From the NCBI RefSeq assembly GCF_030684315.1, contig NC_081391.1, forward strand, positions 21,102,629 to 21,166,628: 64,000 nt of DNA. Reading direction: 5' to 3'. The notes under the pieces were generated by a model that saw only the letters and a list, made by a program, of their open reading frames with translations, did no database searches and had not been told where the DNA came from. Source of the stretch: Stegostoma tigrinum. Its lineage: Eukaryota. This document shows, one piece after another, positions 4,201 through 64,000 of the stretch (positions are counted from its first letter, which is position 1; each line of letters starts with the position of its first letter). Position numbers and translations under genes: made by a program.

Positions 4201-4689
4201 AATCTAATGTTAGGCCTGATCTCGGACCAGTTCAAATATCTCAGCGTGGAGGTTCTTTTGTTCTAGTTCAAACATATCTGGAGTGCACAGTTCGAGCAGG
4301 TTGGACGCAAAGATCGTTATGAACAGAATTTCTGGAATGCCCCCGGACAGAAAGTTAATTGGTTACGATGATAATACTTTGCCCAAGCCCCTCTGTGTAG
4401 AAGTGTAAAGGACGTCTGTGCTTCAAGTTTCAAAGTGGATTAATGCATTTGACAGGGTACATAGAGAGATCCTGCTTCTTTTCAATCCTCATCTAGGACT
4501 AAGAGTGGGGAATATGATTACAATCCTCGCATTAGAAGTAAATCATCTATGATAAAGCCAAAAACAGCTTCGTTTTGGAAAGGATAATATGTGAATCAGC
4601 AGATACATTTTTATTTGGTCAGATTTGATGTTGCCAATTGCTTTCCAATTTGAACATAAAAGATGAATGCATTTTGCTTGAACAAACGT

Positions 4690-5410
4690 AGAAAGACAAA
4701 ACAGGCTCGATGTTTCAATTCTGAGGCGAGTACAAGAGCAGAGGGACTTTGGGTTTCAAGTATGTGATTACTGGAAAGTGGCTGAGCGGGATAAAGCTGC
4801 TATGAGAAGGCTTTTGTGAAATGTGTGTTTTCAAATGGACGCAGAGAGTATAAAAGCGAAGAATAGATGTTACACCTGTACAAATCATGGGTTAGACCAC
4901 ATGTGCAGTGTTGTGTTCAGTTCTGGGCATGGTATTTAAGGAAGGACATTGAAGCCCTCGACAGAGTTCAAAGGGCATTTACGAGAAGAACACCAGGAAT
5001 GAGGTATTTCAGATACAAGGAAAGATGGAAGAAATTGGGGTAAATCTCCTTGGAGCATAAATGTTTAAGAGGTGACCCTGTTGAAGTGATCAAAATAATG
5101 AACAATTCTGTCAGGGTAAAGGAGGATATTCTGTTTTCACCAGTTGATTATGGCAGTAATGAGGGGTCACAGTTTGTCAGTAATGGAGCTCTGAGATGAG
5201 AACAAACCTCTCTATTCAGAAGGTTGTTAGGATTTGGAATGTGATGCCTGGGAGAGTGGCGGAGGTAGATCCCATAGGTGGCTTCAAAACAAGAACTGGA
5301 TATATACTTGGAAGTGACGAATATAGAGGGTATAGGGCTGGAGAGGGGGCCTAGGTGGGTAGCTCTTTCGGAAGCCGATACGGACATGATGGGATGAATG
5401 GCCTCTGTCA
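4690..5410 (+). mobile_element. Old degenerate CR1 3' relic present in most spacers (also ~11320-11900, 18110-18840, 25880-26605, 31730-33640, 39760-40480, 56210-56935)
   Basis: Decayed LYKSLVRPHL-YCVQFW...RVQRRFTR coding remnants and a 3' UTR motif like GATGGGCTGAATGGCCT. Boundaries approximate. Confidence 0.75.
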
Positions 5411-5766
5411 TTAAAAATCCTCTGAATGTCCACCCAGGAACTTTTGTAAATTTTGGGTTTGTATTCTTCTCAGTCTTAAATGTCCAACCCAGTCCTCTTA
5501 CATCAGGATACCCTGATCCTGGACTTCCCCCCCCCCATTGGGAACATCCTTCCTGTCCTTGCCCCGTCTGATCCTGTCACAGTTTTCTATGACCCAGAGT
5601 CAATTTCCCACCTTTCTGTCTCATATCCCAGCACAACGGGCTGAGAAACTGACACCTCTTGTTCGTTGACTTCCTCGTGCAGTTTGTCACAACCACCTTA
5701 ATTTAGAAACAAAATGTTAAAGCTTTTTTCAAACCAAATGCAGTTCTTTTTAAAAAAGAGCCAAAT

Positions 5767-9101: not shown

Positions 9102-11955
9102 ATGGGGTCAATATCTATATCTGTTGTACATGGTGACCTCATTCTACTAAATGACTAGTTGTTCTCTGAGCAAATTAAAATAGTGTTCACCATGGAACTG
9201 AGTACAGTGTTTTATTTTCATAGCTTCTGGTTCTTGGAGCTCTGTGTTTTAATGTCTGATCATCAATCCTTTGTTCTTTGTGACATCCTTTGATTCAATG
9301 CCTGCCCCAGTAACTTGCTCAGTGTTTGATTCTGCTGTGTCTGGGGATTGAGTGGGCAATCCTTTTATTGGAAATTCCATAACTGGTAAGGTTGTTGACA
9401 GATAAATCAGCATTACTGACATGTACTCACAGGGACAAGTTTGCAGGACCAGCTTCTAATCAATAGACTGACTGAAATCAGTCCTTTGCCTAAAGGGTAG
9501 GCACTGATCTAATGCACTGCCCTTGGCCATGTGTTTGGGTCTCTTTTTAAATAAGCAGTTTCTGGAAACCAGGAACACAACCTGCTGGGAAATCTCAGGT
9601 TTGGCAGCATTGGGAGGGAGAAGGGTTGAACAGAACCTGGCCATGAGACACGTGATCATCTCTTGATTTGATGTTGCGTTGCCTGACAGTGAGGTGTTTT
9701 CCAGCAATTTGTTGTAATGCCTTGATGTTACTGATTTTAGTAGATTGTACAATTCCTCCTTTTAAAGTGTAATATACACTGCTTTTCTGCAGGTTTTTCC
9801 TCTTGATAAGGAATTGCTTATGTCACTGTTCCCAGAGCTAGGGAATTAGTTTCTTCGGTATTTCCTTTTATACAGGTAGGAGAAAGAAAAATCTACCTTG
9901 TCTCAGAATGCTAATGACTAGGAACTGCCTTGGGAATGAAGCAGTGCCCACCTTGTTCCCTGTGTGATAATTACTATTATTACCCTGCAAAGAGGTGACA
10001 AATACTGTGGATGCCTGGTAGAAAATCAAGCTAAAATGCAAATACCATGTACAGAAATCAGCAGTTCCAATTTTTACCTTTGTGTTCAATTTTCAAGCAG
10101 ATCAGCTCTCCTGCTGTCGACTGGCTGACCTGTGACTCCACACCGTGCACTGGGGTGGCTTGATAACTGTCAATCAGCTCTGAATTAAAATGTGACTAGT
10201 TTGTGTAAGGGCTTTAACAGGATCAGGCTATCACTGACAGGCAGCATTTATTATCCATCTCTGATTTACCACCCCGCCCCCCCCCACCCCCAGCCAGCCC
10301 ATGAGTAATTCAAATTAAAACCCTTTGCTGTGGGGTTACACAAAGGCCAGATCAGGTAAGGATGGCAGTTTCTTACAAACAAGGACATTAGTGAACCAGA
10401 AGAGGCTTGGTTGGACCCTGTCTTCTGGAATGAGAATGATGTGCGTGAAATTCAGTGATGTCAGACAGACTCAGGATAACAGGTAGCAGTCTAACACTCC
10501 AGAATGTTGACAGCCTCCATCAAACGAGTAGCCACTCTCGTCAATCCTTCCACCACTGACATACGCAGAGACTGCAATATATACCATCGACCAAAGCTCC
10601 TTAGACAACTTCTTAAAACCACAACTACTTTCCATCGGACAAGGGCTGCAGATATGTAGGAACACCACGCATCTCCACATTCTACACCAAGCCACCGATC
10701 ACCCAGCGTTGGAATCGTAACCCCACGTTCCCTCCCTAACAGCAGTATGGATTTGCCTACACCAAATGGGCTACAGTAATGCAAGAAGGCAAATCACCAC
10801 ATTCTCGAAACTAATGTTGGCCCTGATCTCTGAGGGGTTCAAATACCTCTGGATGAAGAGATTTTGGTGAAATTGTCAAGTTCCTGTTCAACCACAGCCG
10901 GAGTGCACAGTTCTGGCAGGTTCGACCCAAAGATGGTTATGCACGGAATTTCTGGAAGTAACCTGGACAGAGAGATGGTTAATTCATGATAATGGCTTGT
11001 CTAGTCCCTCTGTGTAGAAGGTTAAGGGATGGCTGTAATTGATATTTTTCGGAGGATTAATGGATTTGACAGGGTAGAGAGGAAAGAACCCATTTCTTCT
11101 CAATGATCATCTCGGACTGTGCGTAGAATGGGATGACAATCTTCACATGAGAACTACATCATCCAGGATCATGTCAAAAACAGTTACTTTGTGGAAAGGA
11201 CAAAATCTGCGCGCACAGATATTTACTGCACAAGGTTTGATGTTGCCAATCACTTTCCAATTTCAAGACATAAAAATAAAGTGAGTAATGCATTTTCGTC
11301 GAAGAAACACAGAAAGACAAAACAGGCTCGATGTTACAAATCTGATGTGAGTACAGGAGCTCAGAGACTTTCGGTTTCAAGTATGTGATTGTCTGAAAGT
11401 GGTCAGGCAGGATGAAGCTGTTATTAATGGAGATTGAGCCACTTAAGAAGATTTATTAGAATGACCCGAGGAATGAGGAATTTTAGATACACGGAAAGAT
11501 TCAGGAAAATGGGGTAAATCTCCTGGCAGGTGACCTTATTGAGAGGCGACCTTGTTGACGTGATCAAAACTATGATCAATTTTGATAGAGTAAACACGAT
11601 ATTCTGATTTCAGCAGTTGACTTGTCAGTGACGAGGGGTCATAGTTTGTCAGTAGGGGAGATCAGAGTGAAATGGGAAGAAACTTGTTTGCTCAGCAAGT
11701 TGTTCGGATTTGGAATATGCTGCCTGGGAGAGTGACGGAGGTCGATTCCACGGGTGGTTTCAAAACAAGAGTTGGATATGTCCTTGGAAGTGACGAATTT
11801 AGAGAGTGACAGCAATAGGGCTGGAAAGTGGGACTAATCAGGTAGCTCGTTCAGAAGCTATTACAGGACGGTGGGCTGAATGGCCTCCTGTTGTGAAAAA
11901 CACTCTGAATTTCCACCCAGGAAATTCTGAGAGTTTGGGGACGGGGTTTGAATTC

Positions 11956-12290
11956 CACCTGTACAAGGCACCTTTAATGTGGGAAAGCTGTTACACATCA
12001 GCAGAGACATGGTCCTTTACACAAGGTAGACCCAGTTCCACTGGCAAAGAAATGTTGACTGGGGATCCCCCCACTGCTGACCTTCACCCACTGTCACAGC
12101 CAACGGTAGCACACGCCTATCTTCCACCTGGATGGCCGTTGGGAACTTGTTTTGCATTGCACTTTATCAGGACCCTCCCCTCGATCGTACCATCCTGGGT
12201 GGCCCTGCCAGGAGGTGAAATCCACTTCAGGTATCACTCTGAGAACCAACAGAACACTCGAGGCTCTCCATCACTGCGTGGTGACAATCC
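11956..12290 (-). mobile_element. RTE-clade retrotransposon 5'-end relic (also 18896-19229, 33713-34047, 40541-40875, 56995-57329)
   Basis: Minus strand reads GGATTGTCACC...CTCCTGGCAGGGCCACCCAGGATGG...GGATCCCCAGTC...AAGGACCATGT, resembling RTE/BovB/Expander 5' UTRs (from memory). Confidence 0.55.
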
Positions 12291-12542
12291 ACAGGCAGGA
12301 GCTGGAGGCAGGGAGATGCTGCTCAGGTACAGACCCATCACAGAATCGGAGAATTGTTGTGGCACAGCAGGCAGCCATTCGGTCCTTTGTGCCTGCACCT
12401 GTTCTGGTTGTTTCCTAATTCTGCCTGTCGAGATGTTACAAAATCTCTGGATCTGGTATGGACTTGGACCAAGGCTTCCTGGTCCACAGCTAGGGACATT
12501 ACCCCTGCATCACAATACCCTGGCTGCACTGGTTGTACAAAC

Positions 12543-12905
12543 TTAGAATCATCGAAAAAAAATTGTTGTATTCGGCCATTCAGTCCCCTCCAGACTGCTC
12601 TGCCATTCCATGTGATTGTGGCTGATCCCCTAACTCAGTCCCATCTTCCCACTCTCTCTCCATACTCTTTGATCCCTTCAGCCCTCAAAGCTACACCCAA
12701 CTGCTCCTGGAAAACATTCAAAGTTTTGGCCTCAAATGTTTTCTGTGGCAGAGAATTCCACAGGACCCCCACTCTCTCGGTGAAGAGATTTCTCCTCATC
12801 TCAGTCCTAAATGTGTCCTTAGGCTGTGACCCCTGGTCCTAAACTTTTCCATCATCAGGAACATCCTTCCTGTCTTTTCCACAGCTGACACTATGACAAT
12901 TTTCG
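12543..12905 (-). mobile_element. Antisense CR1 3'-end relic upstream of the promoters (paralogs ~19485, 34300, 41130, 57585)
   Basis: TAGAATCAT...GGCCATTCAG...GAATTCCACAG...GTGAAGAGATTTCTCCTCATCTCAGTCCTAAAT is the reverse complement of a CR1 RT end and 3' UTR. Confidence 0.65.
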
Positions 12906-13404
12906 ATGACCCCGAGCCAATTTCCCATCTTTCTTTCCCAAATCCCAGCACAACAGGCTGAGAAACTGACACTCCCCTTCCTCAATGAGTCCCTTGTGCA
13001 GTTGATCACAACCACCATAATTTAAAAACAAAACGAGCAATCTTTTCTCAAACCATATTTACTTCTTTTAAAAAAGAACCAAATGACCCATGACCTGATT
13101 GAGTGGTGCAGAAGGTTTGAGATGCCGAATGGCCTCCTGCTGTTCCAATCACAGAATAACCATCCAGACCTGGCTCTCATCTCCACCTCTGATCAGCTCT
13201 GCTTAACACACCCTCCCCCTCTCTCTCATTGGTGCCTGTATGCAGGGGTGGCTCCTGATTGGCTAGCAGCAACTGTCAGTCATCATCAGTTCGGTCTCCC
13301 TCTGGGTGAGTGCCGGTTGTCTCAGGAGTAGAAACACAACAGCTTTGGGGATTGAGGCCTTTGTTCCAGAGTTGTCCTTGTGATTGTGAGCAGGAATAGT
13401 GAAG

Positions 13405-15918
13405 ATGGCTTCCCAAGTGTGTCAGAACTACCACAAGGACTGTGAGGATGCTGTTAACAAGCAGATCAACCTGGAGCTCTGTTCCTCCTATGTTTACCTC
13501 TCCATGGTGAGCTTTGTGGAATTGAAGCCTGTGTGATAACAGTGTTGACCTGTTTGGGTTTTTATGCTGGGTTAATGACTTAGCTGTAGCATGTATTGTT
13601 TTCTGTGGCCCTTCCCCTGATGCAATCTCGTGCAAGTCCTAACACTGACTCTCTGTTCAGGTTTTGAACACTGTCTTAATATACAACTGGCTCCTGGGTG
13701 TGGATCCCCAGTTGTCCATCTCGAGACAGGGTCGCCCTTGGTGATTGTTTTCATTGAACTCTGGAGGGTTGAGCTGGTTTTGCTGATAAATTTAACTTGG
13801 TTATATCCCTTTTCTTCAGAAAACCTTCCCTGGTAGGACACAAATGTATCCTTTTGTTTGAACCTTGCCCCATTTGCCAGACTGGCTTATGTTCAAGATC
13901 TAAAGTTCCCTTAACTAAAGACAGCAACTGCTGGAAATCAAACAGCAACAAGAATAGCTAGAAAAGTTCTACAGATCTGCAAGGAATGGTGGAAGAATTC
14001 CGGTCAAATTTTGGGTCCACTGACCCTTGCTCAGTGTGTTTTGTGAGCTATGACAAGTGGCACACACTTGAAATATTAACTCGTGTACAACAAAGCAGTT
14101 AGAATTCTGTGTGGAGTGGGTGGTAGGACACTAGGGTTATTCAGGTGGGTGATGGTGATAATGAGGCTGCTGACTGAGATTTCTGGCTGTGTTAATGACT
14201 GACTGCATTATTCATAGCATTTCATTCAGTTGGACAGGGGTCTAACTAGTCTCCACATCGCGAACAATAGTGTTTTATCACCTGCAGAACAGGGATATCT
14301 AATGGCTATAGACAGCTGTCCCCTTCATTGTGCACCATGCCACACTCTATCGCACCTTTTTAGCAAAACACAGGTGAGGGATTGCATTTGGTTTTTGTCC
14401 TCTATTTCCAGAAGTCTGGCTAAGTATCTGTTACATGGGTTATAATCCATGGAAGGTGACTTCCTGGCTCTCTCTAGTTTTGCCCACTTAAATGTGGAGT
14501 CAAGATGGTAACTGGGTTAGTATCTGAGAAGAGGCATTGATGTATTTCAGACATTTCCCTTTATTGCCTCTTCCCCCGACAGGTCTCTTACTTTGACCGG
14601 GATGATGTTGCCCTGCGTCACTTTGCTGAGTTCTTCAAGGAGCAGTCCCATGAGGAGCGGGAACACGCTGAGAAACTGATGGCTTTCTAGAATAAACGTG
14701 GAGGCCGAATCCTCCTGCAGGACATCAAGGTTGGATTCCAAAGCTTTCTTTTGCAGCTTTTTGTGAAATACCACTCAATTGTGGCTAGCTCAATCTGTTT
14801 AGCTTCAGGACTGAGCAAATACTGTATGAATGGGGGGATTGCTCACCACAATACGATTCCCTTCACTAAAAGGAAACACTTTTGCACGTGATTGAACAAT
14901 AGTTGGCAATTGTGATAATCCAGTATTCTGGATGGTGAGCAAATATCGGTGTCTACCGCTGCTTTGGACAAGATGAGGTGTCAAAAGGGAAAACAGAAAT
15001 CTTTCAGGTGTGGAAAGCATCAGTATGAAGCCTTAATACATCTAGAAGATGTTTCTGATGCCTTGTGATTACTCTGATCACAGCATAGCAGGATCTGTTT
15101 AGAAATGTCCCCTTCAAGAACAGTACCAAATACAGCAGGTGTTTCACCAAGGTCAAGTCGGCCTGTAGTACTTCCCCTACAATGATGAGGGATAATTAAC
15201 TGATCAGATGTAGACTAATGATACAACTGCCTGCTGAAATCAGAATATCCTGCTTTACTCTGACAAAATTGATCATAGTTTTGATCACGTCAATAAGGTC
15301 ACCTACAAGGAGATTTCCCCCATTTTCCTTAATCTTTCCGTGTATCTAAAATTCCCCATTCCTGGGGTCATCGTAATAAATCACCTTTGAACACTTTTGA
15401 GGTTTTTCACATCCTTCCTTGAATGTCATGCCCAGAACTGAGTACATAATGGAAATGTGGTCTAACCAATGATTTGTAGAGGTGTAACATCAATTCGTTG
15501 CTTTTATACTCGATGCCTCAATTTGAAATTAAATTTGTATTTAAATCTGGGTTTCTGAATAAAAACAGTGATCAGACACTTGGTCCTTTTTGTTAGCCAC
15601 AAGATCTCATTTGACATTGTGGAGGGTTTTCTTGGGTTATACCAACATCCTCCTGTTTCTAAAACTGAGCACTTTCGAAAGTATTTGGCAATCTCCATGA
15701 CATCACTTCACTGTTCGGTCTCCCAAGCTGCATTTGGTCAGATTTAACCAGTTCCCCTCTTTGTCTTCCAGCTGTATGACTTCCTGGAGAGGCACTACCT
15801 GGATGAGCAAGTGAAGATGATCAAGAAGCTGGGAGATCACATCACCAACCTGAAGAGACTGGGAGCCCCTGACAATGGCATGGGAGAGTACCTGTTTGAC
15901 AGGCTCTCACTCAGCTGA
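13405..15918 (+). pseudogene. Ferritin copy 3, pseudogene
   Basis: Exon 1 13405-13506; exon 2 14583-14729 with CAG>TAG at 14688; exon 3 absent, replaced by an inverted insert 15231-15528; exon 4 15772-15918. Confidence 0.93.
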
Positions 15919-18900
15919 ATGGGGTCAATATCTATATCTGTTGTACATGGTGACCTCATTCTACTAAATGACTAGTTGTGCTCTGAGCAAATTAAAATAG
16001 TGTTCACCATGGAACTGAGCACAGTATGTAATTTTCATAGCTTCTGGTTCTTGGAGCTTTTTGTGTTTTAATGTCTGATCATCAATCCTTTGTTCTTTGT
16101 GTCAAGCTTTTGATTCAATGCCTGCCCCAGTAACTTGATCAGTGTTTGATTCTGCTGTGTCTGGGGATTGAGTGGGCAATCCTTTTATTGGAAATTCCAT
16201 AACTGGTAAGGTTGTTGACAGATAAGTCAGCATTACTGACATGTACTCACAGGGACAAGTTTGCAGGACCAGCTTCTAATCAATACACTGACTGAAATCA
16301 TTCCTTTGCCTAAAGGGTAGGCACTGATCTAATGCACTGCCCTTGGCCATGTGTTTGCATCTCTTTTAAATAAGGAGATTCTGGAAACCAGGAACACATC
16401 CTGCTGGGAAATCTCAGGTTGGGCAGCATTGGTAGGGAGAAGGGTTGAACAGAACCTGGACATGAGACACTCAATCATCTCTTGATTGACTTTGTTGCCT
16501 GACAGTGAGGTGTTTTCCAGCAATTTGTTCTCATGCCTAGATGTTAGTGATTTTAGTAGTTTGTAAAATTCCTCCTTACAAGACTAAGATACAATGCTTT
16601 TCCACAGTCTCTTTTTTTCTTTGACATAAGCAATTGCTCATGTCATTGTTCCCAGAGCTAGGGAATTAGTTTCTTCAGTATTTCCTTTATACATGTAGGA
16701 GAAGGACAAATCTACCTTCTCTTAGAATGCTAACGTCTAGGAACGGCCATGCGAATGAAGCGGTGCCCACCTCGTTCCCTGTGTGATAACTTCTATTATT
16801 ACCCTGCAACGAAGAGGTGACAAATACTGAGGATGCCTGGTGGAAAATCAAGCTAAAATACAAATACCATGTGCAGAATCGGCAGTTCCAATTTTTACGT
16901 TTTTTAATCTTCAGCAGGAGAGCTGATCTGGCTGACCTGTGACTCCAAACAGTGCACTGTGGTGGCCTAATCACTATCAATCAGCCCTGAATTACAATGT
17001 GACTGGTTTGTGTAAGGGCTTTAACAGGATCAGGCTATCACTGACAGGCAGCATTTATTATCCATCTCTGATTACCCACCCAGCCCATGAGTAATTCAAA
17101 TTAAACCCCTTTGCTCTGCCTGTGGCGTTACGCAAAGGCCCGATCAGGTAAGGATGGCAGTTTCTTACGAACAAGGACATTAGTGAACCAGAAGAGGCTT
17201 GTTTGGACCATCTCTTCTGGAAAGAGAATGATGTGCATGAAATTCTGTCAAGTCAGACAGTATCAGGATTACAGGTGTCAGTCTAACACTCCAGAATGTT
17301 GACAGCCTCCAGCAAACGAGCAGCCACTTTCGTCTATCCTTCCACCACTGACATACGCAGAGACTGTAATATATACCATCTACCAAATGCTGTAGGAATC
17401 CACCAAAGCTCCTCAGACAACTTCTTAAAATTCTGACTACTTTCCATCGGACAAGGGCAGATGATATGTGGGAACACCACGTTCTACACCAAACCACCGA
17501 TCAGCTGGTGTTGGAAACATCGCTCCCAGGTTCCCTCCCGAACAGCAGTATGGGTTTGATTACACCAAATGGGCTACAGTAATGCAAGAAGGCAAGTCAC
17601 CACATTCTCTAAACTAATGTTGGCCCTGATCTCTGAGGGGTTCAAATACCTCTGGATGAAGAGATTTTGGTGAAATGGTCAAGTTCCTGTTCAACCACAG
17701 CCGGAGTGCACAGTTCTGGCAGGTTCGACCCAAAGATGGTTATGCACAGAATTTCTGGAAGTAACCTGGACAGAGTGATGGTTAATTCATGATAACGGCT
17801 TGTCTAGTCCCTCTGTGTAGGAAGTTAAGGGATGGCTGTAATTGATAATTTTCAGAGGATTAATGGATTTGACAGGGTAGAGAGGAAAGAACCCATTTCT
17901 TCTCAATGATCATCTCGGACTGTGCGCAGAATGGGATGACAATCTTCACGTGAGAATTACATCATCCAGGATAATATCAAAAACAAATTTCTTTGTGGAA
18001 GGGACAATATCTGCACACACAGATATTTACTGCACAAGGTTTGATGTTGCCAATCACTTTCCAATTTCAACAAAAAAAAGTGAGTAATGCATTTTTGTCG
18101 AAGAAACACAAAGTCAAAACAGGCTCGATGTTACAAATCTGATGTGAGTACAGGAGCTCAGCGACTTTCAGTTTCAAGTATGTGATTATCTGAAAGTGGT
18201 CAGGCAGGATGAAGCTGTTATTAATGGAGATTGAGCCACTTTTGTGAACCTTGTGTTTTCAAATTGAGGCATCGAGTATAAAAGCAACGAATTGATGTTA
18301 CACCTCTACAAATCATTGGTTAGACCAAATTTCCATTATGTACTCAGTTCTGGGCATGACATTCAAGGAAGGATGTGAAAAACCTCAAAAGTGTTCAAAG
18401 GTGATTTATTACGATGACCCCAGGAATGGGGAATTTTAGATACACGGAAAGATTAAGGAAAATGGGGGAAATCTCCTTGTAGGTGACCTTATTGACGTGA
18501 TCAAAACTATGATCAATTTTGTCAGAGTAAAGCAGGATATTCTGATTTCAGCAGTTGACTTGTCAGTGACGAGGGGTCACAGTTTGTCAGTAGGGGAGAT
18601 CAGAGTGAAATGGTTAGAAAACTCTTTGCTCAGAAAGTTGTTCGGATTTGGAATGTGCTGCCTGGGAGAGTGACGGAGGTCGATTCCATGGTTGGTTTCA
18701 GAACAAGAGTTGGATATGTCCTTGGAAGTGACGAATTTAGAGAGTGACAGAGATAGGGCTGGAAAGTGAGACTAATCAGGTAGCTCTTTCAGAAGCTATT
18801 ACAGGAACGGTGGGCTGAACGGCCTCCTGTTGTGAAAAACGCTCTGAATTTCCACTCAGGAAATTCTGAGAGTTTGGGGACGGGGTTTGAATTCCACCTG

Positions 18901-20119
18901 TAGAAGGCACCTTTAATGTGGGAAAGCTGTTACACGCCAGCAGAGACATGGTCCTTTACACAAGGTAGACCCAGTTCCACTGGCAAAGAAATGTTGACTG
19001 GGGATCCCCCCACTGCTGACCAACACCCACTGTCACAGCCAACGATCGCACACACCTATCTTCCACCTGGATGGCCGCTGGGGACTGGTTTTGCATTGCA
19101 CTTTATCAGGACCCTCCCCTCGATCGTCCCATCCTGGGTGGCGCTGCCAGGAGGTGAAATCTTCTTCAGGTATCACTCTGAGAAACAACAGAACACTTGA
19201 GGCTCTCCATCACTGCGAGGTGACAATCCACAGGCAGGAGCTGGAGGCAGGGAGATTCTGCTCAGGTACAGACCCACCACAGAATCGGAGAATTGTTATG
19301 GCACAGCAGGAGGCCATTCGGTCCTTTGTGCCTGTACCTGTTCTGGTTGTTTTCTAAATCTGCCTGTGGAGATGATTTAAGATCTCTGGATCTGGTAGGA
19401 ACTTGTACCAAGGCCTCCTGGTCCACAGCTAGGGACATGACCCCTTAACCACAAGACCCTGGCTGCGCTAGTTGCACAAACGTGGAATCATAGAAAATAA
19501 ATGTTGAGTCGGCCATTCATCCCTTCCAGCCTGCTCTGCCATTCCATGTGATTGTGGCTGATTCCATAACTCAGCACCATATTCTCACCCTCTCTGCATT
19601 CCCTTTTGATCCAGCCCTCAAAGCTCTCCCCAATTCCTGTTTTGGCTTCAATCCTTTTCTGTGGCAGAGAATTCCACAGGATCCACCACCCCGCCCCCCG
19701 AGGTGAAGAGATTTCTCCTCACCTCAGTTCTAAATGTATCCTTAGACTGCAAACCCTGGTCCTGAACTCCCCCATAATCAGGAACATCCTTCCCGTCTTT
19801 TCCACAGCTGACACTGTTGCAATTTTCTATGACCCAGAGACAATTTCCCAACTTTCTTTCCCAAATCCCAGCACAACAAGCTGAGAAACTGATGCCCCTC
19901 TTCCTCATTGAATCCCTCGTGCAGTTGCTCACAACCACCTTAATTAAAAAAAATGTGAAAACTTTTCTCAAACCAAATTGACTTATTTTAAAAAAGAACC
20001 AAATAACACACGACCTGAGTGAGTGGTGCAGAAGGTTTGAGATGCCGAATGGCCTCCTGCTGTTCCAGTCACAGAATAACCATCCAGACCTGGCTCTCAT
20101 CTCCACCTCTGATCAGCTC

Positions 20120-20257
20120 TGCTTAACACACCCTCCCCCTCTCTCTCATTGGTGCCTGTATGCTGCGGTGGTTCCTGATTGGCCAGCAGCAACTGTCAGT
20201 CATCATCAGTTCTGCCTCTCTCTGTGTGACTGCAGGATGGTCCCAGGACTATAAATA
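20120..20257 (+). promoter_or_regulatory. Ferritin proximal promoter: CACCC box, two inverted CCAAT boxes, TATA (repeated before copies 2, 7, 9; TATA-degenerate before 1, 3, 6)
   Basis: ACACACCCTCCCC, CATTGG, GATTGG, then TATAAATA about 77 nt before the ATG; block conserved among copies. Confidence 0.7.
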
Positions 20258-20326
20258 CAAGAGCCTGTGGGAGAGAGAGACTTAGTTCTAGAGTTTTCTT
20301 GGTGCTTGTGAGCAGGAATAGTGAAG

Positions 20327-22605
20327 ATGGTTTCCCAAGTGTGTCAGAACTACCACAAGGACTGTGAGGATGCTGTTAACAAGCAGATCAACCTGGAGCT
20401 CTATTCCTCCTATGTTTACCTCTCCATGGTGAGCTTTGTGGAATTGAAGCCTGTGCTATGATAGTGTTGACCTGTTTGGTTTTTATGCTGAGTTAATGAA
20501 TTAGCTGTATCATGTATTATTTTCTGTGGCCCTTCCCCTGTTGCAATCTAGTGCAGGTCTTAACACTGACTCTCTGTTTTGTCTTCATGTCCAACTGGCT
20601 CCTGGATGTGGATGCCCAGCTTGCTGTCTCTGGACAATGTAACCCTTGGTGATTTTTCATCTAACTCTGGAGGGATGATCTGGTCTTGGTCAATAATTAA
20701 TTTTTGTAAAACTTTGGTTGTATTCCTTTTCTCAACAAAAGCCTTCCCTGGTGGAAACTTTTGCTGACACAAATATACTCCTTTTTTCAAACCTTGCCCT
20801 ATTCACCGGACTGTCTTGTGCTCAAGATGTAAAGTTCCCTGAACTAAAAGAACAGCTGCTGCTAGACATTAAACACTAACAAAAATAGCTAGAAAAGCTC
20901 TACAGAGCTGGAAGAAATCCAAGCTCTGGGTCCATTGACCCTTTCTCAGAAGTGGCTTTGAGCGATGCAATGTGAGGAAAGGGGCACATTTTCAGACGAT
21001 GTATGTGTTTTTTTTCTTTCTCTCTAACAAAGCAGTTAAAATTCTGTGGAGTGGGTGGTAGGACACTGCGGTTATTCAGGTGGGTGATAGTGATAATGAG
21101 ACTGCTGACTGAGCTTTCTGGTTGTGTTAATGAACACATGTCCCTTCATTCAGTTGGACAGGGGCTGAACTGGTCTCCACCTCCTGAACAATAGTGTTTC
21201 TAACCTGCAGAGCAGGGATGTCTAATGGCTATAGACAGCTCTCCCCTTCATCATCCATGGAAGGTGACTTGCTGCTTTGTCTGTTTTTTTTTTTAACCAC
21301 TTAAATGTGGAATCAAGATGGTGCCCAGGTTAGTTCCAGAGTGAGGAGTGTCAGTCATGAATTTCAGACAGTTTCCTTTTAGCCTCTCTCTTCCCACAGT
21401 TCTCTTACTTTGACCGGGATGATGTTGCCCTGCATCACTTTGCTGAGTTCTTCAAGGAGCAGTCCCATGAGGAACGGGAACACGCTGAGAAACTGATGGC
21501 ATTCCAGAATAAACGTGGAGGTCGAGTCATCCTGCAGGACATCAAGGTTAGATTCTGAAGCCTTCTGTTTGCAGCTTTTTGTGAGCAGCTACAATCGACT
21601 GGTATCTCCATCTATTTAGCTTTAGCCTTGAACAAATACTGTGTGAAGGGGAGGTTGTTCACCAAAATAGGATTCCTTTAGGTGAAAGGAAATACTCTGC
21701 ACTTATGAGGGCAATTGAGAGGAACCAGAATAGTGAGTAGACATCAATGTGAATGACTCTCCTTCAGACAGAATGAGGTAACAAAAGCTAAGACAGGAAA
21801 TTGTTGCAGTGTGGAAAGTAGCAGTGTCCAGCCTTTCTGAATCTGGAAGATGTTTCTAACACCACAATAGTGAAGCCAGGAATTACTTCCATTGGTACCT
21901 ATTCTCTACATGTGAATTCTGAGAATCTACATTAACAGTAGAATGTGTTTAGAAAATTTGTTATTCCCTCAGTACAAAATCTAGTTGTTGTCTTCAAATT
22001 CAAGTTGGTTTGCAGTACCTCCCCTACAATGATGAGGGATAACTAACTGATCAGATGTCGACTAATGATACAACTGCCTGCTGAACTGTGCTTTCTGTTC
22101 CTGCTTCCCTCCCTCCAGAAGCCAGAGCAGGATGAGTGGGGCAGTGGTCTGGAGGCAATGCAGAGAGCTCTGCAGATGGAGAAGGATGTGAACCAGAGTC
22201 TGCTGGATCTGCACAAACTCGCCTCTGGCCACACTGACCCTCATGTGAGTTTGTAAACTTTCTTCTTGGAAGAAAGTGGTGTGTTTGTGCACTCTCTGGG
22301 TAAAAATCCAATTACCTTCTCCCAGCCTCCTGCAGGCTGTTAAAACAAACTTACAAATGCATCACCTCAGTGGACCTCCACCTGGTTGTGATGGTCACAT
22401 CTGTCATGGGGGTCACTTTCAGACACTTTTGATCCTCTGGATTAATTTTCTCTTCCAGCTGTGTGACTTCCTGGAGAGGCAATACTTGGATGAGCAAGTG
22501 AAGATGATCAAGAAGCTGGGAGATCACATCACCAACCTGAAGAGATTGGGAGCCCCTGACAATGGCATGGGAGAGTACCTGTTTGACAGGCTCACACTCA
22601 GCTGA
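20327..22605 (+). CDS. Ferritin copy 4, intact, 173 aa
   Basis: Exons 20327-20428, 21400-21546, 22119-22244, 22459-22605; GT-AG. TATAAATA at 20250. Confidence 0.94.
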
Positions 22606-24687
22606 ATGGGGTCAATAATGTGTATGTTGTACATGGTGACATAATGCTAGTAACTTGGTTGTGCTCTGAGCAAATTAAAATAGTGTTCACCATGCAACTG
22701 AGTACTTTGCATAATTTCACAGCTGCTTCTGGCTCTTGGTATTGCTGTTTGACACCTGATCATGAAGTGTTTTTCTGTTCTGATTAACCTTTGATTCAAT
22801 GCCTGCCCCACTGGTTTGCTCCTTTTTCTCTTGTTTGTAGGAATTAGGTGGGCAATCCTTGTAGTGGAAATTCCACAAGTGTTCAGTTTGGGTTTTTTGG
22901 CTAGTAAGCAGTGTTGTATTGACTTTTTTATTCCAAACCAGCTTCTGGTCAATATCTTCAGTGAAACCAGCCCCCTGTCTCAATGTTAGACACTGCCCTT
23001 GCAAATGTTTAGGTCTCTTTTGTAAATAAGCAGGGGCAGGAAATAGCAGGTTTGGGGAGCATCTGTGGAGAGAAAACTGTTCAGTCCCAGGACCCAAGCT
23101 TTCCAGCAATTTTGTTGTCGCACTTCAAATCTAATGATTTGAGCATACATTTACTCTTTTTGGAACAGGAATATATATATAGCAGAACATCCAGCATTTC
23201 AGATGCACTGATCTTTAGCATTTAGATAAGCAATTGTGTCCAGATCTGGGAAATTGGTTTCTCTCTTTTGCTGCGGTGGTGGAAGGAGTGAGGGCAGTGG
23301 CTGTTTGTAGGAGAATGGCAGAGTTTGTTTTCTTGTGTATCAGTCTCTCTGCTTCTAGACAATGATCCTGATTAGGTAATGAAGCAGTCCCCACCTTCGA
23401 GCCCCTGTGGTAGAACTTCTATCACTTCTCTGCAGTCTAAGGACGCCAAATGCTCATGACACCAGGAGAAAATAAAGCTCCAACCCAAATGCCACTGGTA
23501 GAAAGCAGCAGTTCCTATTCTTAGCAAGGAAATAAGCTCTCCTGATGTAGATTGACTGACTGGAATGTACCTACACCTGCAGAGCACTCTGGCTGCCTAA
23601 TTACTGATGCTCAGGGGTGACAGATTCCTTTATAAAAAGGATGAGGATGTCTCTGAGCTGACACCATTTATTTATCCATTTCCGATTGCCCCCTGCCAAA
23701 GCCAGGTCAGAGTGTCACGCTTTGCTGTGGTTGCAGTGTCATATGCAGGCCAGACTAAGTAAGGATGCATTTTTGACACTGAATTTAATGCTACTCATCA
23801 GTTTCTTAATTCTAGAACTCCAGAGAGTTGTTGCACAGAATTAGAAGATCAGTCCACCACTCCAGAAATGTGATGGCCTCCCGCTCCCACCAGCCACGAG
23901 ATTCATTCTTTGCACCACTGACACACACAGAGTACACTGTGTACTGCCTCCCAAAAGCTGCAGAAATCCACCATCGCTCCTGAGACAATACTTTCCATAG
24001 CCCTAATTATGTGCCATGGGAGAAAAGCATCTGATACAGGGGAACACCACCCCCTCTAACTACTCCACCAAGCGACATGCCATCCTGAGTTGGAAACGTG
24101 ACCCGCCATGCTCCAGGGTCGGTGGATCAGAATCCTGGAATTCCCTCACTCAGAACATTATGGATCTGACGACAGCAAATAGGCACCAGCAATTCAAGAA
24201 GGAAAGCCACCACATTCTCTCATGGTGAGCCTGATCTCAGACCGGGTCCAATACCTCGGGATGGGCCTTCTTTTGTGAAATTGTCAAGTCCTAGTTCAAC
24301 CCCATCTGGAGTGCACTGTTCCAGTAGGTGCAATCCAAAGATGCTTATGCACAGAATTTCTGGAATGAACCTGGGCAGAAAGTTAATTGGCTACGATGAT
24401 AATAGTTTTCCCAAGTCTCTCGGTGTAGAAGTGGAAGGGATGTCTGTGCTTGAAATTTACAAGTGGATTCATGGATTTGATAGGGTAGATAGAGAGATCC
24501 TGCTTCTTTTCAATTCCATTCCAGGACCGAGAGTGGGGAATATGATTACATTCCTAGTAGTAGAAGTAAATCATCCATGATAAAGCAAAAAACAGCTGCT
24601 TTTTGGAAAGGATAATATGTGAATGAGCAGTTAGATATTTATTCGGTAAGATATTGATGTTGCCAATCACTTTCCCATTGCAACATA

Positions 24688-25849
24688 TGACCAAACAGGT
24701 AGATGAGAGAAAACCGGTTGATGTGGTGTATATGGATTTCGGCAAGGCTTTCGATTAGGCTCTTGTACAAAATACGGAGGAATGGGATTGTGGGAGATAT
24801 AGCAGTTTGGATCAGAAATTGGCTTGCTGAAAGAAGACAGCGTGGTGGTTGATGGGAAATGTTCATCCTGGAGACCGGTTACTCGCGGTGTACCGCAAGG
24901 GTCGGTGCTGGGTCCACTGCTGTTTGTCATTTTTATAAACGTAGAAGGATGGGTTAGTAAATTTGCAGACGACACGAAGGTCGGTGGAGATGTGGATAGT
25001 GACGAAGAATGTTGTAGGTTACAGAGAGACGTAGATAAGTTGCAGAGCTGGGCTGAGAGGTGGCAAACGGAGGTTAATGCGGACAAGTGTGAGGTGTTGT
25101 ACTTTGGTAGGAGGAACCGGAAGGCAAAGTACTGTAAGATTCTTGGTAGTGTAGATGAGCAGAGAGATCTCGGTGACCATGTACACAGATCCTTGAAAGT
25201 TGCCACCCAGGTTGACAGGGTTGTTAAGAAGGCATACAGTGTTTTAGCTTTTATGAATCCAGGGATCATGTTCCGGAACCAAGAGGTTATGCTGCAGCTG
25301 TACAAAACTCTGGTGCGGCCGCACTTGGAGCATTGCGTACAATTCTGGTCACCGCGTTATAAGAAGGATGTGGAAGTTTTGGAAAGGGTGCAGAGGAGGT
25401 TTACTAGGATGTTGCCTGGTATGGAGGGAAAGTCTTACGAGGAAAGGCTGAGGGACTTGAGGCTGTTCTCGTTAGAGATAAGAAGGTTGAGAGGTGACTT
25501 AATTGAGACATATAAGATAATCAAAGGGTTAGACAGGTTGGATAGGGAGAGCCTTTTCCCTAGGACGGAAACGGCGAGCACGAGGGGGCATAGCTTTAAA
25601 TTGAGGGGTGAAAGATATAGGACAGATGTCAGAGGTAGTTACTTTACTCAGAGAATAGTAAGGGTATGGAACGCTTTGCCTACAACGGTCGTAGATTCAC
25701 CAACTTTAAGTACATTTCAGTCGTCATTGGACAAGCATATGGACGTACGTGGAATAGTGTTGGTTAGATGAGCTTCAGATCGGTATGACAGGTCGGCACA
25801 ACGTCAGGGCCGAAGGGCCTGTACTGTGCTGTAATGTTCTATGTTCTAT
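24688..25849 (+). mobile_element. 5'-truncated CR1 (RT C-terminal part + 3' UTR)
   Basis: GVPQGSVLGP and FADD motifs, TGTTCTA tail, TSD AACATA (24682-24687 / 25850-25855); empty site at ~4652. Confidence 0.92.
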
Positions 25850-27056
25850 AACATAAAAGATTAATGCATTTTGGTTGAGAAACATAGAAAGACAAAACAG
25901 GCTCGATGTTACAAATCTGAGGTGAGTACGGGAGCAGAGGGACTTTGGGTTTCAAGTATGTTATTATCTGAAAGTGGCCGAGCGGGACTAACCTGCTATG
26001 AAGAAGGCTTTTGTGAAATGTGTGTTTTCAAATAGATGCGGAGAGTATAAAAGCGAGGAATAGATGTTACACCTCCACAAATCATGGGTTAGACCACATT
26101 TGCAGTACTGTGTTCAGTTCTGGGCATGGTATTTAAGGAAGGACATTAAAGCCCTCGACAGAGTTCAAAGGGCATTTACGAGAATGACACCAGGAATGAG
26201 GGATTTTAGATACAAGGAAAGATGAAGGAAATTGGGATAAATCTCCTTGAAGCATAGTTGATTAAGAGGTGTCCCCGTTGAAGTGACAAAAATAATGAAC
26301 ATTCTGGCAGGGTAAAGGAGGATATCCTGTTTTCACCAGTTGATACGGCAGTGATGAGGGGTCACAATTTGTCAGTAAGGGAGCTCTGAGATGAGGACAA
26401 ACCTCTCTATTCAGAAGGTTGTTAGGATTTGGAATCTGATGCCTGGGAGAGTGGCGGAGGTAGATCCCATAGGTGGCTTCAAAACAAGAGCTGGATATAT
26501 ACTTGGGAGTGACGAATATAGAGGGTATAGGGCTGGAGAGGGGGACTAGGTGGGTAGCTCTTTCGGAAGCCGATACGGACATGATGGGCTGAATGGCCTC
26601 TGTCGTTAAAAATCCTCTGAATGTCCACCCAGGAACTTTTGTAAATTTTGGGTTTGTATTCCTCTCAGTCTTAAATGTCCAACCCAGTCCTCTTACATCA
26701 GGATACCCTGATCCTGGACTCCCCCATCATTGGGAACATCCTTCCTGTCCTTGCCCCGTCTGATCCTGTCACAGTTTTCTATGACCCAGAGCCAATTTGC
26801 CACCTTTCTGTCTCATATCCCAGCACAACAGGCTGAGAAGCTGACACCTCTTCTTCATTGACTTCCTCGTGCAGTTTGTCACAACCACCTTAATTTAGAA
26901 ACAAAATGTTAAAGCTTTTTTCAATTGCCAGTCATCATCAGTTCTGCCCTTCTCTGTGTCAGTGCGGGATGGCCCCCAGGAGTATAAATACAGAGCTTGT
27001 CGGGGAGCAACTCAGTTCTAGGGTGGTCTTGGTTTTAATGAACAAGGCTAGTGATG

Positions 27057-29465
27057 ATGGCCTCCCAAGTGTGTCAGAATTACCACAAGGACTGTGAGGA
27101 TGCTGTGAACAAACAGATCAACCTGGAGCTTTATTCCTCCTATGTTTACCTCTCCGTGGTGAGACTTGTGATCTTGAATGGTCTATTTCAGTGTTAGGGC
27201 TGTGATATGATTGTACTGAGCCTTTAAGTGGCTTCTTGCTCAATGATTTAGTACTACCATATATCGTGTCTGTTGTCCTTCCTGGAATGAATCCTGTGAG
27301 TGCTCTTAATACTAATTCTGTAGCAATTTTAAGCTTGTCTTGTGTTGGAGCTGGCTCTTGTCTAGGAGTCCCCAGTATGTTGTAATTCTGGGCAGAGCAC
27401 ATTTTTGGTGCTGAGGGATGGCCTGGTTCTGCTTCTTAATTCAACTCCTCCTTCCATGTTGATATCAATGGCCCATTTATATTTGAAATCATTTACATCC
27501 TTGTGGAAGCCTGCATCAGTCCAAATCTAACTTTTTATATCTTGTCCTTTTAATGAAGCCTTTTTTTTAATAAGCATCCTAACTGTGATTAACTACTGGA
27601 AATAAAAGACTAAAATGAGCTGCTGGAAAAGCTTAGTGGGTCTGGTAGGATCTGTGGTGAGAAATCAGTTCCTGTTTTTGGTCCAGTGACCTTTCCTTCA
27701 TGGTTTTTAGTTGCTAATTATGAGGAGCAGACTTTTTCCACTCCCAAGATGGATTATCTGGAACAAAAATCAGTCACTGTCTCTTGTGCAGATGAGGTGT
27801 TAGGACAGTGGGGCTAAATCAGATGAGTGATGTTGGTAATGTGAGGAGCTCAGATTTCAGCTTCTCTTGGTCAACATGCACATGTCCCTTCATTCAGTTG
27901 GACAATGCCCTGATTGGCTTCCAGCACTGGGTAATAGTGTTTCTGACCTGCAGTGCAGGGATGTCTAATGCCTGTTGCCAGCTGTGACCGTCACCGTGCA
28001 CTGTCTCACCAAGTCACCGACCAGCGGTTGTAGCGGGTGCTACTTAATCTTTATTTCTAGATGTTTGAACAAATATCTGTCTAGTTTAGTTTATGGATGA
28101 CCATAAATGTAAATACCTGTCTTCTTACTGTCCATCTAACTTCCATTTCGTGAGCAAAACCAAGCTGAATTGAGTGAAATTTACTTCCCATTTTGTCTGT
28201 TTGCAGTTCTCTCTCTTTGACCGGGATGATGTTGCCCTCCATCACTTTGCTGAGTTCTTCAAGGAGCAGTCCCATGAGGAGCGGGAACACGCTGAGAAAC
28301 TGATGGCATTCCAGAATAAACGTGGAGGCTGAGTCCTCCCGAGGACATCAAGGTTGGATTCTGAGAATGTCTGTCTGTTTGCAGCTTTTTGAGCAGCTAC
28401 AATCGACTGGTATCTCCATCTATTTAGCTTCAGGATTGATCAAATACTATGTCAAGGGCAAGTTGTTCACCAAAACAGGATTTGTTTAGGGAAAAGGGAA
28501 ATACTTTGCATTTGTGACTCAATAGCAGAAGGCAATTCAGATGATCCAGGCTACTGGATGGTGAGCACATGTCCCTGTATGTGACTCTATATGGACAAGG
28601 TGAGGTAACAAAAGGTAAGGCTGAGAACTTGCAGCTACAAAAAGCAGCAGCATCCAACCTCACTACATCCAGAAGAGGTTTGTAATGCCTTGGGACCATT
28701 CTGGTCACTACATCAAACAGTAAAGCAAGGGATTACTTCCATTGCGACTGATTCTAGATACGACTTCTTTCAGAATTCACAGTAACAGTGGGATATGTTA
28801 ACATTTCTTTATTCTCAGACCAGCATAAAATCTAGAGGGTTTTTGTATCCAAGTAAAATTTTTTGTCTGAATGTAACCCCTGGAAATGATGAGGGATAAC
28901 TAACTGATCAGATGTAGACTAATGATACAACTGCCTGCTGAGCTGTGCTTTCTGTTCCTGCTTCCCTCGCTTCAGAAGCCAGAGCAGGATGAGTGGGGCA
29001 ATGGTCTGGAGGTGATGCAGAGAGCTCTGCAGATGGAGAAGGATGTGAACCAGAGTCTGCTGGATCTGCACAAACTTGCCTCTGACCACATAGACCCTCA
29101 TGTGAGGTTTTATCCCTTTCCTGGAAGAAAGTGATCTGTTTGTGTACTTCCAGGGTGGGGAATCCAATTATTTTTCTATCTGCCTCCTGCAGGATGTTTA
29201 AACAAAACCTTGTGAAGGCATCACTTGCATGCCCCTCCCCCATAGTGAGGTGATGGTCACTTCTGTCATGGGAGGTCACTGACATTTTTTGATCCTTGTT
29301 GGATTAATTTTGTCTTCCAGCTGTGATTTCATGGAGAGGCACTACTTGGATAAGCAAGTGAAGATGATCAAGAAGCTGGGAGATCACATCACCAACCTGA
29401 AGAGACTGGGAGCCCCTGACAATGGCATGGGAGAGTACATGTTTGACAGGCTGCCACTCCGTTGA
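27057..29465 (+). pseudogene. Ferritin copy 5, pseudogene (most divergent introns)
   Basis: Exon 1 27057-27158; exon 2 28207-28352 with CGA>TGA at 28330 and a 1-nt deletion; exon 3 28976-29101; exon 4 29321-29465 with a 2-nt deletion at its start. Proximal promoter deleted. Confidence 0.92.
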
Positions 29466-33046: not shown

Positions 33047-35161
33047 TGAACCTTGTGTTTTCAAATTGAGGCATCGAGCATAAAAGCAAGGAATTGATGA
33101 TACCCCTCTACAACTCATTGGTTAGACCACATTTGCAGTGATGTGCTCAGTTCTGGGCGTGGCTTTTAAGGAAGGGCATGCAAGCACTGGACAGAGTTCA
33201 AAGGTGATTTATAATAATGACACCTGGAATGGGGAATTTCAGACACACGGAAAGATTAAAGAAATAGCGCTTATTCTCCTTGGAGCAAGGAGCACTTGTT
33301 GAAGTGATCAAAATTATCACCAATTCTGTCAGGGTAAAGGGGGATATTCTGTTTTCACCAGTGGATACGTTAGTGACGAGGGGTCACAATTTGTCAGTGA
33401 GGGAGCTCACAGTGAGAGGAGGAGAAACCTCTTCACTCAGAAAGTTGGTAGGGTTTGGTATGCGTAGCTGACAGGAGTGATGGACGCAGATTCCGTAGGT
33501 GGCTTTAGAAAAGCAGCTGTATACATATATGGAAGTGGCAAATTTAGAGGGATACAGACATAGGGCTGGAGAGTGGGGCTGGGTGTGGAATGCTTTCAGA
33601 AGCTGAATCAGGCACGATGGACCAAATGGCCTCCTATCATTAAAAATCCTCTGCATGTTCCCCCAGGAAATTCTCAGAGTTTGGAGAGGGCCTTTGTACT
33701 CCTCTCAGTGGGCACCTGTACAAGGCACCTTTAATGTGGGAAAGCTGTTACACATCAGCAGAGACATGGTCCTTTACACAAGGTAGACCCAGTTCCACTG
33801 GCAAAGAAATGTTGACTGGGGATCCCCCAACTGCTGACCTTCACCCACCGTCACAGCCAACGATAGCACACGCCTATCTTCCACCTGGATGGCCGTTGGG
33901 AACTTGTTTTGCATTGCACTTTACCAGGACCTTCCCCTCGATCGTACTGTCCTGGGTGGCCCTGCCAGGAGGTGAAATCCTCTTCAGGTATCACTCTCAG
34001 AACCAACAGAACACTCGAGGCTCTCCATCACTGCGAGGTGACAATCCACAGGCAGGAGCTGGAGGCAGGGAGATGCTGCTCAGGTACAGACCCATCACAG
34101 AATCGGAGAATTGTTGTGGCACAGCAGGCGGCCATTCGGTCCTTTGTGCCTGTACCTGTTCTGGTTGTTTTCTAATTCTGCCTGTAGAGATGTTACAAAA
34201 TCTCTGGATCTGGTATGGACTTGGACCAAGGCTTCCTGGTCCACAGCTAGGGACATTACCCCTGCATCACAATACCCTGGCTGCACTGGTTGTACAAACT
34301 TAGAATCATCGAAAAAAAATTGTTGGATTCGGCCATTCAGCCCCCTCCAGACTGCTCTGCCATTCCATGTGATTGTGGCTGATTCCATAACTCAGTCCCA
34401 TCTTCCCACTCTCTCTCCATACTCTTTGATCCCTTCAGCCCTCAAAGCTACACCCAACTGCTCCTGGAAAACATTCAAAGTTTTGGCCTCAAATGTTTTC
34501 TGTGGCACAGAATTCCACAGGACCCCCACTCTCTCGGTGAAGAGATTTCTCCTCATCTCAGTCCTAAATGTGTCCTTAGGCTGTGACCCCTGATCCTAAA
34601 CTTTTCCATCATCAGGAACATCCTTCCTGTCTTTTCCACAGCTGACACTATGACAATTTTCGATGACCCCGAGCCAATTTCCCACCTTTCTTTCCCAAAT
34701 CCCAGCACAACAGGCTGAGAAACTGACACTCCCCTTCCTCAATGAGTCCCTTGTGCAGTTGATCACAACCACCATAATTTAAAAACAAAACGAGCAATCT
34801 TTTCTCAAACCATATCTACTTCTTTCAGAAAAGAACCAAATGACCTATGACCTGAGTGAGTGGTGCAGAAGGTTTGAGATGCCGAATGGCCTCCTGCTGT
34901 TCCAATCACAGAATAACCATCCAGACCTGGCTCTCATCTCCACCTCTGATCAGCTCTGCTTAACACACCCTCCCCCTCTCTCTCATTGGTGCCTGTATGC
35001 ATGGGTGGCTCCTGATTGGCCAGCAGCAACTGTCAGTCATCATCAGTTCGGTCTCCCTCTGGGTGAGTGCCGGTTGTCTCAGGAGTAGAAACACAACAGC
35101 TTTGGGGATTGAGGCCTTTGTTCCAGAGTTGTCCTTGTGATTGTGAGCAGGAATAGTGAAG

Positions 35162-37555
<2,394 letters not shown>

Positions 37556-41973: not shown

Positions 41974-44369
<2,396 letters not shown>

Positions 44370-47631: not shown

Positions 47632-48283
47632 AACATAAAAGATGAATGCATTTAAGATTATTTTCATTAGAAGGGTGATGGGGTCGGGGGGGAACCTGAC
47701 TGAGGTCAACAAAATCATGAGAACTATAGACAAGGTGAATAGCAAGAAGCTTTTTCCCAGAGTCGGGGATTCAATGACTCGGAGTCATGAGTTCAAAATA
47801 AGAGCAAAGTTTAGAGGGGATTTGGTTAGATTGCCTACAGTGTGGAAACAGGCCCTTTAAGCCAAAAATGTCCACACTGGCCCTTGAAGCATCCCACCAA
47901 AACCCCCCACACTTCTGAACGCTACGGGCAATTTATCATGTGGATGTGTGGCAAGCTCTTTACGCAGAGGTTGGAGGGTGCCTGGCACACTTTGCCTGTG
48001 GAGGTGGTAGACGAAGTCACGCAAGTGTCTTTTTAAGATGTATCAGGACAGGTACATGGATGGGCAGGGAGCAAAGGGATACTGACCCTAGAAAAGAGAT
48101 GACAGACTTACACAGGATCTCGATCGGTGCAGGCTTGGAGGGCCGAAGGGCCTGTTCCTGTGCTGTGATTTTCTTTGTTCTTAAATGTGGAGTCAAGATA
48201 GTGACCAGGTTAGTTTCTGATTGAGGAGTGCCATTGATTAACATCAGATATGTTTCCCTTTCCTGCCTTTCTCTTCCCCACGG

Positions 48284-49494
<1,211 letters not shown>

Positions 49495-51459: not shown

Positions 51460-51660
51460 CCATATATATCAGCAAGGCAGCTAAATCCGAGACTCTACAA
51501 CTGTAGTGTCACCCACCCGCCCTCCTCCTCTAACCTAGTTAATAAGGTAAGGTTCATTCTAAACTTTCTCTATTGAACATAAGTTTGTTATTAATTTGTT
51601 ATTATTACTTGAAGTGAGCTTTCTGCTTTAGTACTGAGTGGGTGTTCAGATAAGTGGGGT

Positions 51661-63935: not shown

Positions 63936-64000
63936 AACATAAAAGATTAATGCATTTTGGTTGAGAAACATAGAAAGACAAAACAGGCTCGATGTTACAA

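Follow-up and report, generated by a model that had tools for sequence, protein, structure and literature searches.

The third of nine ferritin genes in a 64,000-nucleotide stretch of the Stegostoma tigrinum genome (the window) lacks exon 3 and carries an inverted sequence in its place. The locus raises the question of how this state arose, and whether the inverted sequence shares an origin with the apparent fusion of two ferritin genes around it.

The nine ferritin copies of the window are arranged in tandem, all on the + strand. Each of the four exons of copy 6 gives a match to Pfam model PF00210 (two of these matches are above the curated cut-off), and the array has both the ferritin domain and the four-exon gene structure of vertebrate ferritins. 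Middle-subunit ferritins are the best relatives of solved structure. When exon 2 was searched at the protein level, 268 of 998 candidates matched, and the nearest among the 120 matches listed are shark ferritins, carpet sharks foremost, several per contig. Copies 1 and 9 agree at 173 of 173 residues with two Stegostoma tigrinum records among the 151 proteins compared, and an open 173-aa product is obtained from six of the nine copies (1, 2, 4, 6, 7 and 9). Copy 5 (27057-29465) is a frameshifted pseudogene. Copy 8 is without exon 1 and its exon-2 acceptor is broken (AG to GG); its promoter and exon 1 are gone because of a non-homologous junction at 47653-47657, where DNA from downstream of copy 7 passes into copy-8 intron 1. 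No iron-responsive element was found in the 5' region of any copy (Rfam, 0 matches at gathering score in the window); a motif pattern for this element has a single match, at 4900, within CR1-like sequence. The array probably extends past the window. A large tandem ferritin expansion is shared with the Greenland shark, for which a passage of bioRxiv 10.1101/2024.09.09.611499 reports 155 FTL and 179 FTH1 copies, in clusters syntenic with the white shark and expressed in the ovary; the window is probably part of the corresponding cluster. That passage deals with counts and synteny, to which the analysis of copy 3 adds mosaic structure and junctions.

Copy 3 retains exon 1 (13405-13506, + strand) and exon 2 (14583-14729, +), both of copy-6 type, and exon 4 (15772-15918, +), which lies on the copy-8 side. 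Its private coding changes are three in number, and all are amino-acid-changing or nonsense: Tyr to Cys in exon 1, a stop codon at 14688-14690 in exon 2 and Cys to Tyr in exon 4. Exon 3 measures 126 bp, and its deletion by itself would preserve the reading frame. Copy 3 is best regarded as an exon-3-less pseudogene; the private changes, small in number, are consistent with this, and the sequence offers no evident function for the rearranged product.

The inverted templated insert is 298 bp long (15231-15528, - strand). Its reverse complement agrees with 18257-18554 at 297 of 298 positions and with 56357-56654 at 296 of them, and together with these donors it forms the sole long inverted match family in the window. 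The stretch replaced, in copy-6 coordinates, amounts to 170 bp and comprises 34 bp of intron 2, the whole of exon 3 and 10 bp of intron 3. At the left junction lies a 7-nt microhomology, CTGCTGA (15231-15237, +), common to intron 2 of copies 2, 6 and 8 and to the donor end; a junction match of at least 7 nt was obtained in 0.056% of 200,000 random forward/reverse junctions. The right junction shows no microhomology and instead a 7-nt filler, TTAAATT (15529-15535, +), which is absent from both parents. The filler is all A/T and fully tiled by TTAAAT from the right flank and AATTTG from the insert end; the chance that a random 7-mer is tiled by two overlapping local 6-mers is 0.02-0.04. A seamless in-register junction is absent: 170 bp is gone, and in its place stand 298 bp, of which 7 nt are the microhomology, and a filler of 7 bp. 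The insert was made by synthesis, since the donor at 18257-18554 is still in place. A preliminary description of this DNA had reported the replacement of exon 3, the microhomology and the filler, and all are present as it gave them.

The presumed donor (18257-18554, +) lies within a decayed CR1 ORF2 fragment at about 18148-18702, and its sister copy (56357-56654, +) in the block of copies 8 and 9. It is situated 2,721 bp past the right break, 3,190 bp behind the copy-8 position and 15.1 kb from the copy-6 break. A 90% paralogue with the same 7-mer (39904-40200, +), 3,203 bp behind the copy-6 break and inside the lost interval, was left unused. At 18356 the insert and the 18-kb donor share the allele of three of four outgroup copies, and at 18446 (a CpG) that of four of five, although the closest outgroup agrees with the 56-kb copy. 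Position 18328 still has its ancestral state in the insert, and has since changed in the 18-kb donor. The earlier count of two diagnostic bases in three in favour of the 18-kb donor is therefore true, but it does not identify the donor, as the two shared alleles are those of the outgroup majority and the third base of the insert is ancestral. Identification of the 18-kb donor by SNP polarisation was rejected, the SNPs fitting a common ancestor of both donors equally well. By origin the insert is transposon sequence, yet it is a product of DNA-templated copying and not of retrotransposition, because the donor is an internal slice of an older CR1 ORF2 fragment that extends on both sides of it. 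A young, near-full-length CR1 LINE (51052-55574, +) is found in the 8-9 block only, with an empty site at about 17475. This element has a 220-bp tandem at its 5' end, an ORF1-like frame and a GTTCTAT-type tail, and contains, in pieces, putative endonuclease and reverse-transcriptase frames.

The flanks of the insert were assigned site by site. Substitutions separating copies 6 and 8 are of copy-6 type at 45 of 46 sites to the left and of copy-8 type at 140 of 147 sites to the right, where one further site matches neither (Fisher p=3e-35). The final site of copy-6 type lies at 15196 and the earliest of copy-8 type at 15548, so that the switch brackets the insert; between 15197 and 15547 no base tells copy 6 from copy 8, exon 3 being gone. 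The left arm (11964-15237, +, starting at about 11960) is 98.3% identical to the copy-6 block 33717-36997, and the right arm (15536-25914, +) is 98.9% identical to the copy 8-9 block 49112-64000, the young CR1 set aside. Near the junction each arm differs from its partner by about 1% (12 of 1,238 bases on the left, 22 of 1,925 on the right). Over its whole length the left arm shows greater divergence than the right (55 of 3,278 versus 116 of 10,325 bases, p=0.015), and the excess clusters far from the junction in what look like conversion tracts. The interval missing from copy 3 has as its reference 36998-49111 (+), which holds the 3' part of copy 6, the whole of copy 7 and the 5' remnant of copy 8; its 12,114 bp equal the 6-to-8 paralogue offset of 11,944 bp plus 170. 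Sequence comparison supports copy 3 as a 6/8 chimera that, relative to 33713-64000, has lost about 12.1 kb, a twin of copy 7 among it. This figure presumes the block shown, and nearer parents may lie past the window. Copy 6 or copy 8 as the recombinant in place of copy 3 was considered and rejected, as either would call for two exchanges instead of one. The preliminary description had assigned the flanks in the same way and had put the loss at about 12.1 kb with a whole gene, and both points are borne out; it had named a 6-to-8 switch away from the insert as a finding that would tell against it, and the switch falls within 15196-15548. Its block end at 25913 has to be given up: this position (about 25913) is merely the partner of window base 64000, and the true end lies beyond the window.

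The left break has its equivalent at 36997, inside the longest tract over which copies 6 and 8 are perfectly identical (142 bp, 36957-37098, +), as in an exchange of the NAHR type. This tract falls within the end of intron 2 and exon 3 (36945-37157, +), a segment that is homogenised array-wide. The final 87 bp of intron 2 (36945-37031 and its paralogues) are 97-99% identical to copy 6 in five of the seven other copies compared, while the neighbouring intron in distant copies is 55-64% identical to it. Identity between copies 5 and 6 reaches 97% in the intron tract and falls to 55% immediately upstream of it and to 36% over the initial part of intron 3; exon 3 and the end of intron 2 of copy 5 are 96-97% like copy 6 despite its frameshifted state. 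This likeness may reflect a conversion hotspot or an unrecognised constraint. A search around the copy-6 break for a G-quadruplex-type pattern gave 0 matches.

Changes of affinity are also seen elsewhere in the array. Over positions 1 to 965 of the window, copy 1 matches copies 3 and 6 at its 5' end to 98-99%, and thereafter to about 90%; this switch at about 965, with no insert, reads as a recent homologous exchange. A further clean homologous switch without an insert lies at 11954-11964. At 33700-33720 the DNA upstream of copy 6 changes paralogous family where there is an indel of 11 bp. This may be the junction of a tandem duplication, in which case a copy-5 twin would be predicted past 64000. 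The segments upstream of copy 5 (25850-26924) and of copy 2 (4653-5732) are 93% identical and appear to mark another recent exchange.

Public reads were compared for four of the seven runs listed; the contigs drop rare variants, and the array has many copies. No junction-bridging contig or read was found among the 16 pieces listed for these four public runs (1,681 others fall outside the listing). In two bisulfite runs, of which about 1% was sampled, 5 and 6 listed reads at the left site run into the native intron. The bisulfite depth bins hold no read entering the insert at the left site, and the right junction is beyond their resolution. The copy-3 allele may be private, polymorphic or filtered out of the contigs. 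In runs X1 and X2, the contig path that predominates over 14763-15713 resembles copy 6 in intron 2 and, in intron 3, comes near the consensus of copies 2, 6 and 8; its depth, about 5-7 times that of neighbouring contigs, suggests that this gene type has further copies beyond those in the window.

The history that we tentatively favour is a single homology-guided repair event in the germline, which derailed into microhomology template switching and made both fusion and scar. It would have started from a duplicated block of the [6,7,8,9] type, in whose copy-6 twin a break occurred or a fork collapsed close to where intron 2 ends. The broken end would have engaged the copy-8 twin 11.9 kb downstream by way of the 142-bp perfect tract. 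At CTGCTGA synthesis would have come off its template and started anew on the opposite strand, within the decayed CR1 fragment about 3.2 kb farther along. About 290 nt were copied backwards, presumably at this stage; the locally templated 7-nt filler was added, and rejoining took place in copy-8 intron 3, 170 bp beyond the point of exit. The outcome would be the loss of the 12,114 bp and the exon-3-less pseudogene that also bears the exon-2 stop. The long tract suits synthesis of the MMBIR/FoSTeS type and the filler suits end joining of the Pol theta type; as to the priming end of the inverted copy, snap-back from a resected right end would suit the filler equally. An experimental precedent, in PMC5104497, is a gene conversion whose final part is a copy of 146 bp in inverted orientation, taken from about 3.5 kb away, together with an insertion of 21 nt. 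Copy 3 likewise has a short inverted copy from kilobases off, a short insertion and a microhomology join, whereas in the published case the break was induced, in a reporter in mouse cells, and the sister chromatid served as template; copy 3 is natural and of the germline, involves paralogues, and its homologous initiation is a conjecture. The MMBIR templated insertions (MMB-TI) described in PMC8421209 include inverted ones that occur as human germline variants, and copy 3 resembles them in its inverted templated insert and its return to the forward strand; microhomology is present at its left junction, and filler at its right one. The template is nearby and retained, as in MMBIR/FoSTeS, but at 2,721 bp it lies far outside the template distance of about 100 bp in the definition of PMC8421209; that survey covered templates up to 100 bp, while the copy-3 template is 2.7-3.2 kb off and accompanies a 12-kb paralogue fusion.

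Insert and fusion probably arose together, and the argument is one of probability: two independent events, if uniformly placed, would overlap by chance in 0.3% of cases over the window and 1% over the block. The chance that a homology-blind deletion ends within 170 bp of register is 0.5-6% under log-uniform size models; these near-register and overlap chances come from rough models devised for this analysis. A single homology-guided event removes both coincidences. It is also fitted by the position of the left break in the longest 6/8 tract and in the homogenised segment, and by the use of a donor behind copy 8 and not of the equidistant paralogue behind copy 6. The homogenisation and the choice of donor suit as well a history in two steps, in which unequal crossover (NAHR or single-strand annealing) in the intron-2/exon-3 tract joined the copy-6 and copy-8 twins as an intact gene, and a local deletion of 170 bp with an inverted templated insert later took exon 3 away. 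A local event on an already fused gene would be expected to draw on a donor 3.2 kb behind the copy-8 position; the uninformative zone holds 8-34% of the 6/8 crossover weight by identity-tract weighting, and the clean homologous switches at about 965 in copy 1 and at 11954-11964, which count against the favoured event, show such crossovers elsewhere in the array. The greater divergence of the whole left arm may count against the favoured event too. The copy-3 junction is not the seamless one of unequal crossover, although a later scar could mask it. A rare complex event would, however, have had to hit the earlier crossover point (the 0.3-1% above, if uniform), both events would have to fit into a branch of about 0.6% divergence, and the three damaging private changes out of three, few as they are, suggest that any working chimera was short-lived. 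We hold the two-step history to be possible but unlikely; with the informative part of exon 3 lost, sequence does not separate it from the single event. Less likely again is double cutting, one event without strand invasion: the copy-6 and copy-8 twins would each break at one shared sequence, for instance at paired meiotic hotspots, which would free 12 kb, and fold-back synthesis from the resected right end would precede joining. Here near-register ends would follow from a break-prone sequence common to the paralogues; homogenisation of the tract is at most a hint of such hotspots. The study bioRxiv 10.1101/2020.06.23.168138 describes mouse deletions between adjacent SPO11 hotspots that carry inverted local inserts of 16-709 bp and in which microhomology marks one junction but is scant at the other, and PMC7615360 reports template switching and TMEJ signatures at human hotspots. 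Copy 3 is like the mouse deletions in being of the germline, with an inverted insert of similar size and one-sided microhomology; the mouse inserts, however, stem from hotspot centres at the breakpoints, whereas the donor of copy 3 lies 2.7 kb past the right break, outside the deletion, and is retained. If the homogenised tract is a break hotspot, two separate events become far less unlikely, which would weaken the case for the favoured event and strengthen both the two-step and the double-cut models.

The preliminary description had proposed one template switch by MMBIR/FoSTeS or Pol theta. A DNA-templated origin, probably in one event, stands, and the homology-blind form of the proposal does not fare well, the ends being only 170 bp off register. 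Such a switch with ends near register by chance needs only a single event and agrees with the junction microhomology and filler; we consider it improbable, in view of the near-register chance given above and of a left end that would have skipped a nearer paralogous donor with the same 7-mer. As the agent of the main insert Pol theta is a poor fit. According to PMC7165422, its inserts are typically 3-30 bp, from templates usually within about 30 bp (distal templates in less than 0.1% of repair), and the longest insertion reported there is 157 bp; 298 nt from 2.7-3.2 kb away falls outside this range, and only the filler, short, A/T-rich and copied from the flanks, together with the microhomology join, is Pol theta-like. 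An assembly artefact, either a chimeric junction or two alleles (11956-33712 and 33713 onward) set in tandem, is likewise improbable. In its favour are the difference of only 1.1-1.7% between the two blocks, the 0.65-0.66 of sampled words contained in the four runs (below the 0.72-0.75 suppliable by paralogues alone), the contigs that cross both junction positions by donor or native-intron paths, and the near absence from contigs of the copy-3 alleles at 14688 and 14838. Against it, no N occurs in the window, the insert is identical to neither of the donors there and retains an ancestral base, the filler is tiled from local sequence, copy 3 has decay mutations of its own, and the upstream contexts of the two blocks differ; the loss of rare variants from contigs has also to be set against those absences, and a false duplication would leave the junction real, as an allele. 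Insertion of a CR1 retrotransposon by target-primed reverse transcription with deletion of the target is very improbable. The insert is CR1 ORF2 sequence and CR1 is active here, but the insert is an internal ORF2 slice with no 3' tail and no target duplication, the target is deleted, and the donor fragment continues beyond the slice to ORF2 residue 504 at 18702; over its best 83 bp the insert is about 72% like the young element, and it shares the decay indels of the local copy. The standing given here to the favoured history and its rivals expresses our judgement.

Exon-3-less ferritin models recur, whether through splicing, deletion or annotation error. Relatives with exons 1, 2 and 4 and without exon 3 number 4 among the 120 relatives listed, and further exon-3-less members in other sharks are labelled isoforms X2 or X3 (the relatives bearing on these models are P0016, P0017, P0018, P0029 and P0121-P0123).

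The copy-3 junction was not found in the literature searched, in which subscription journals are thinly covered, and the shark ferritin expansion was. The event is a further instance of a published class of mechanism, well described in mammals and yeast, in a published gene cluster, and the view of ferritin biology is unchanged. The rearrangement is unusually legible: a stretch of 50 kb still holds both types of parent along with the donor, and so each base of the junction can be assigned. Copy 3 shows the death of one copy in a shark cluster reportedly expressed in the ovary, and that clean unequal crossover is not the only route of gene loss from a tandem array. A wider reading, which we regard as doubtful, is that the intron-2/exon-3 tract of about 210 bp, which is homogenised in the most diverged copies too, is a recurrent site of germline breakage and exchange, where paralogue-guided recombination, microhomology template switching and Pol theta-like sealing would follow one another as a regular route of gene death. 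If this were true, more near-register, insert-scarred losses of exon 3 would be expected in shark arrays, and the value of the present case would rise if such fusions turned out to recur at the homogenised tract.
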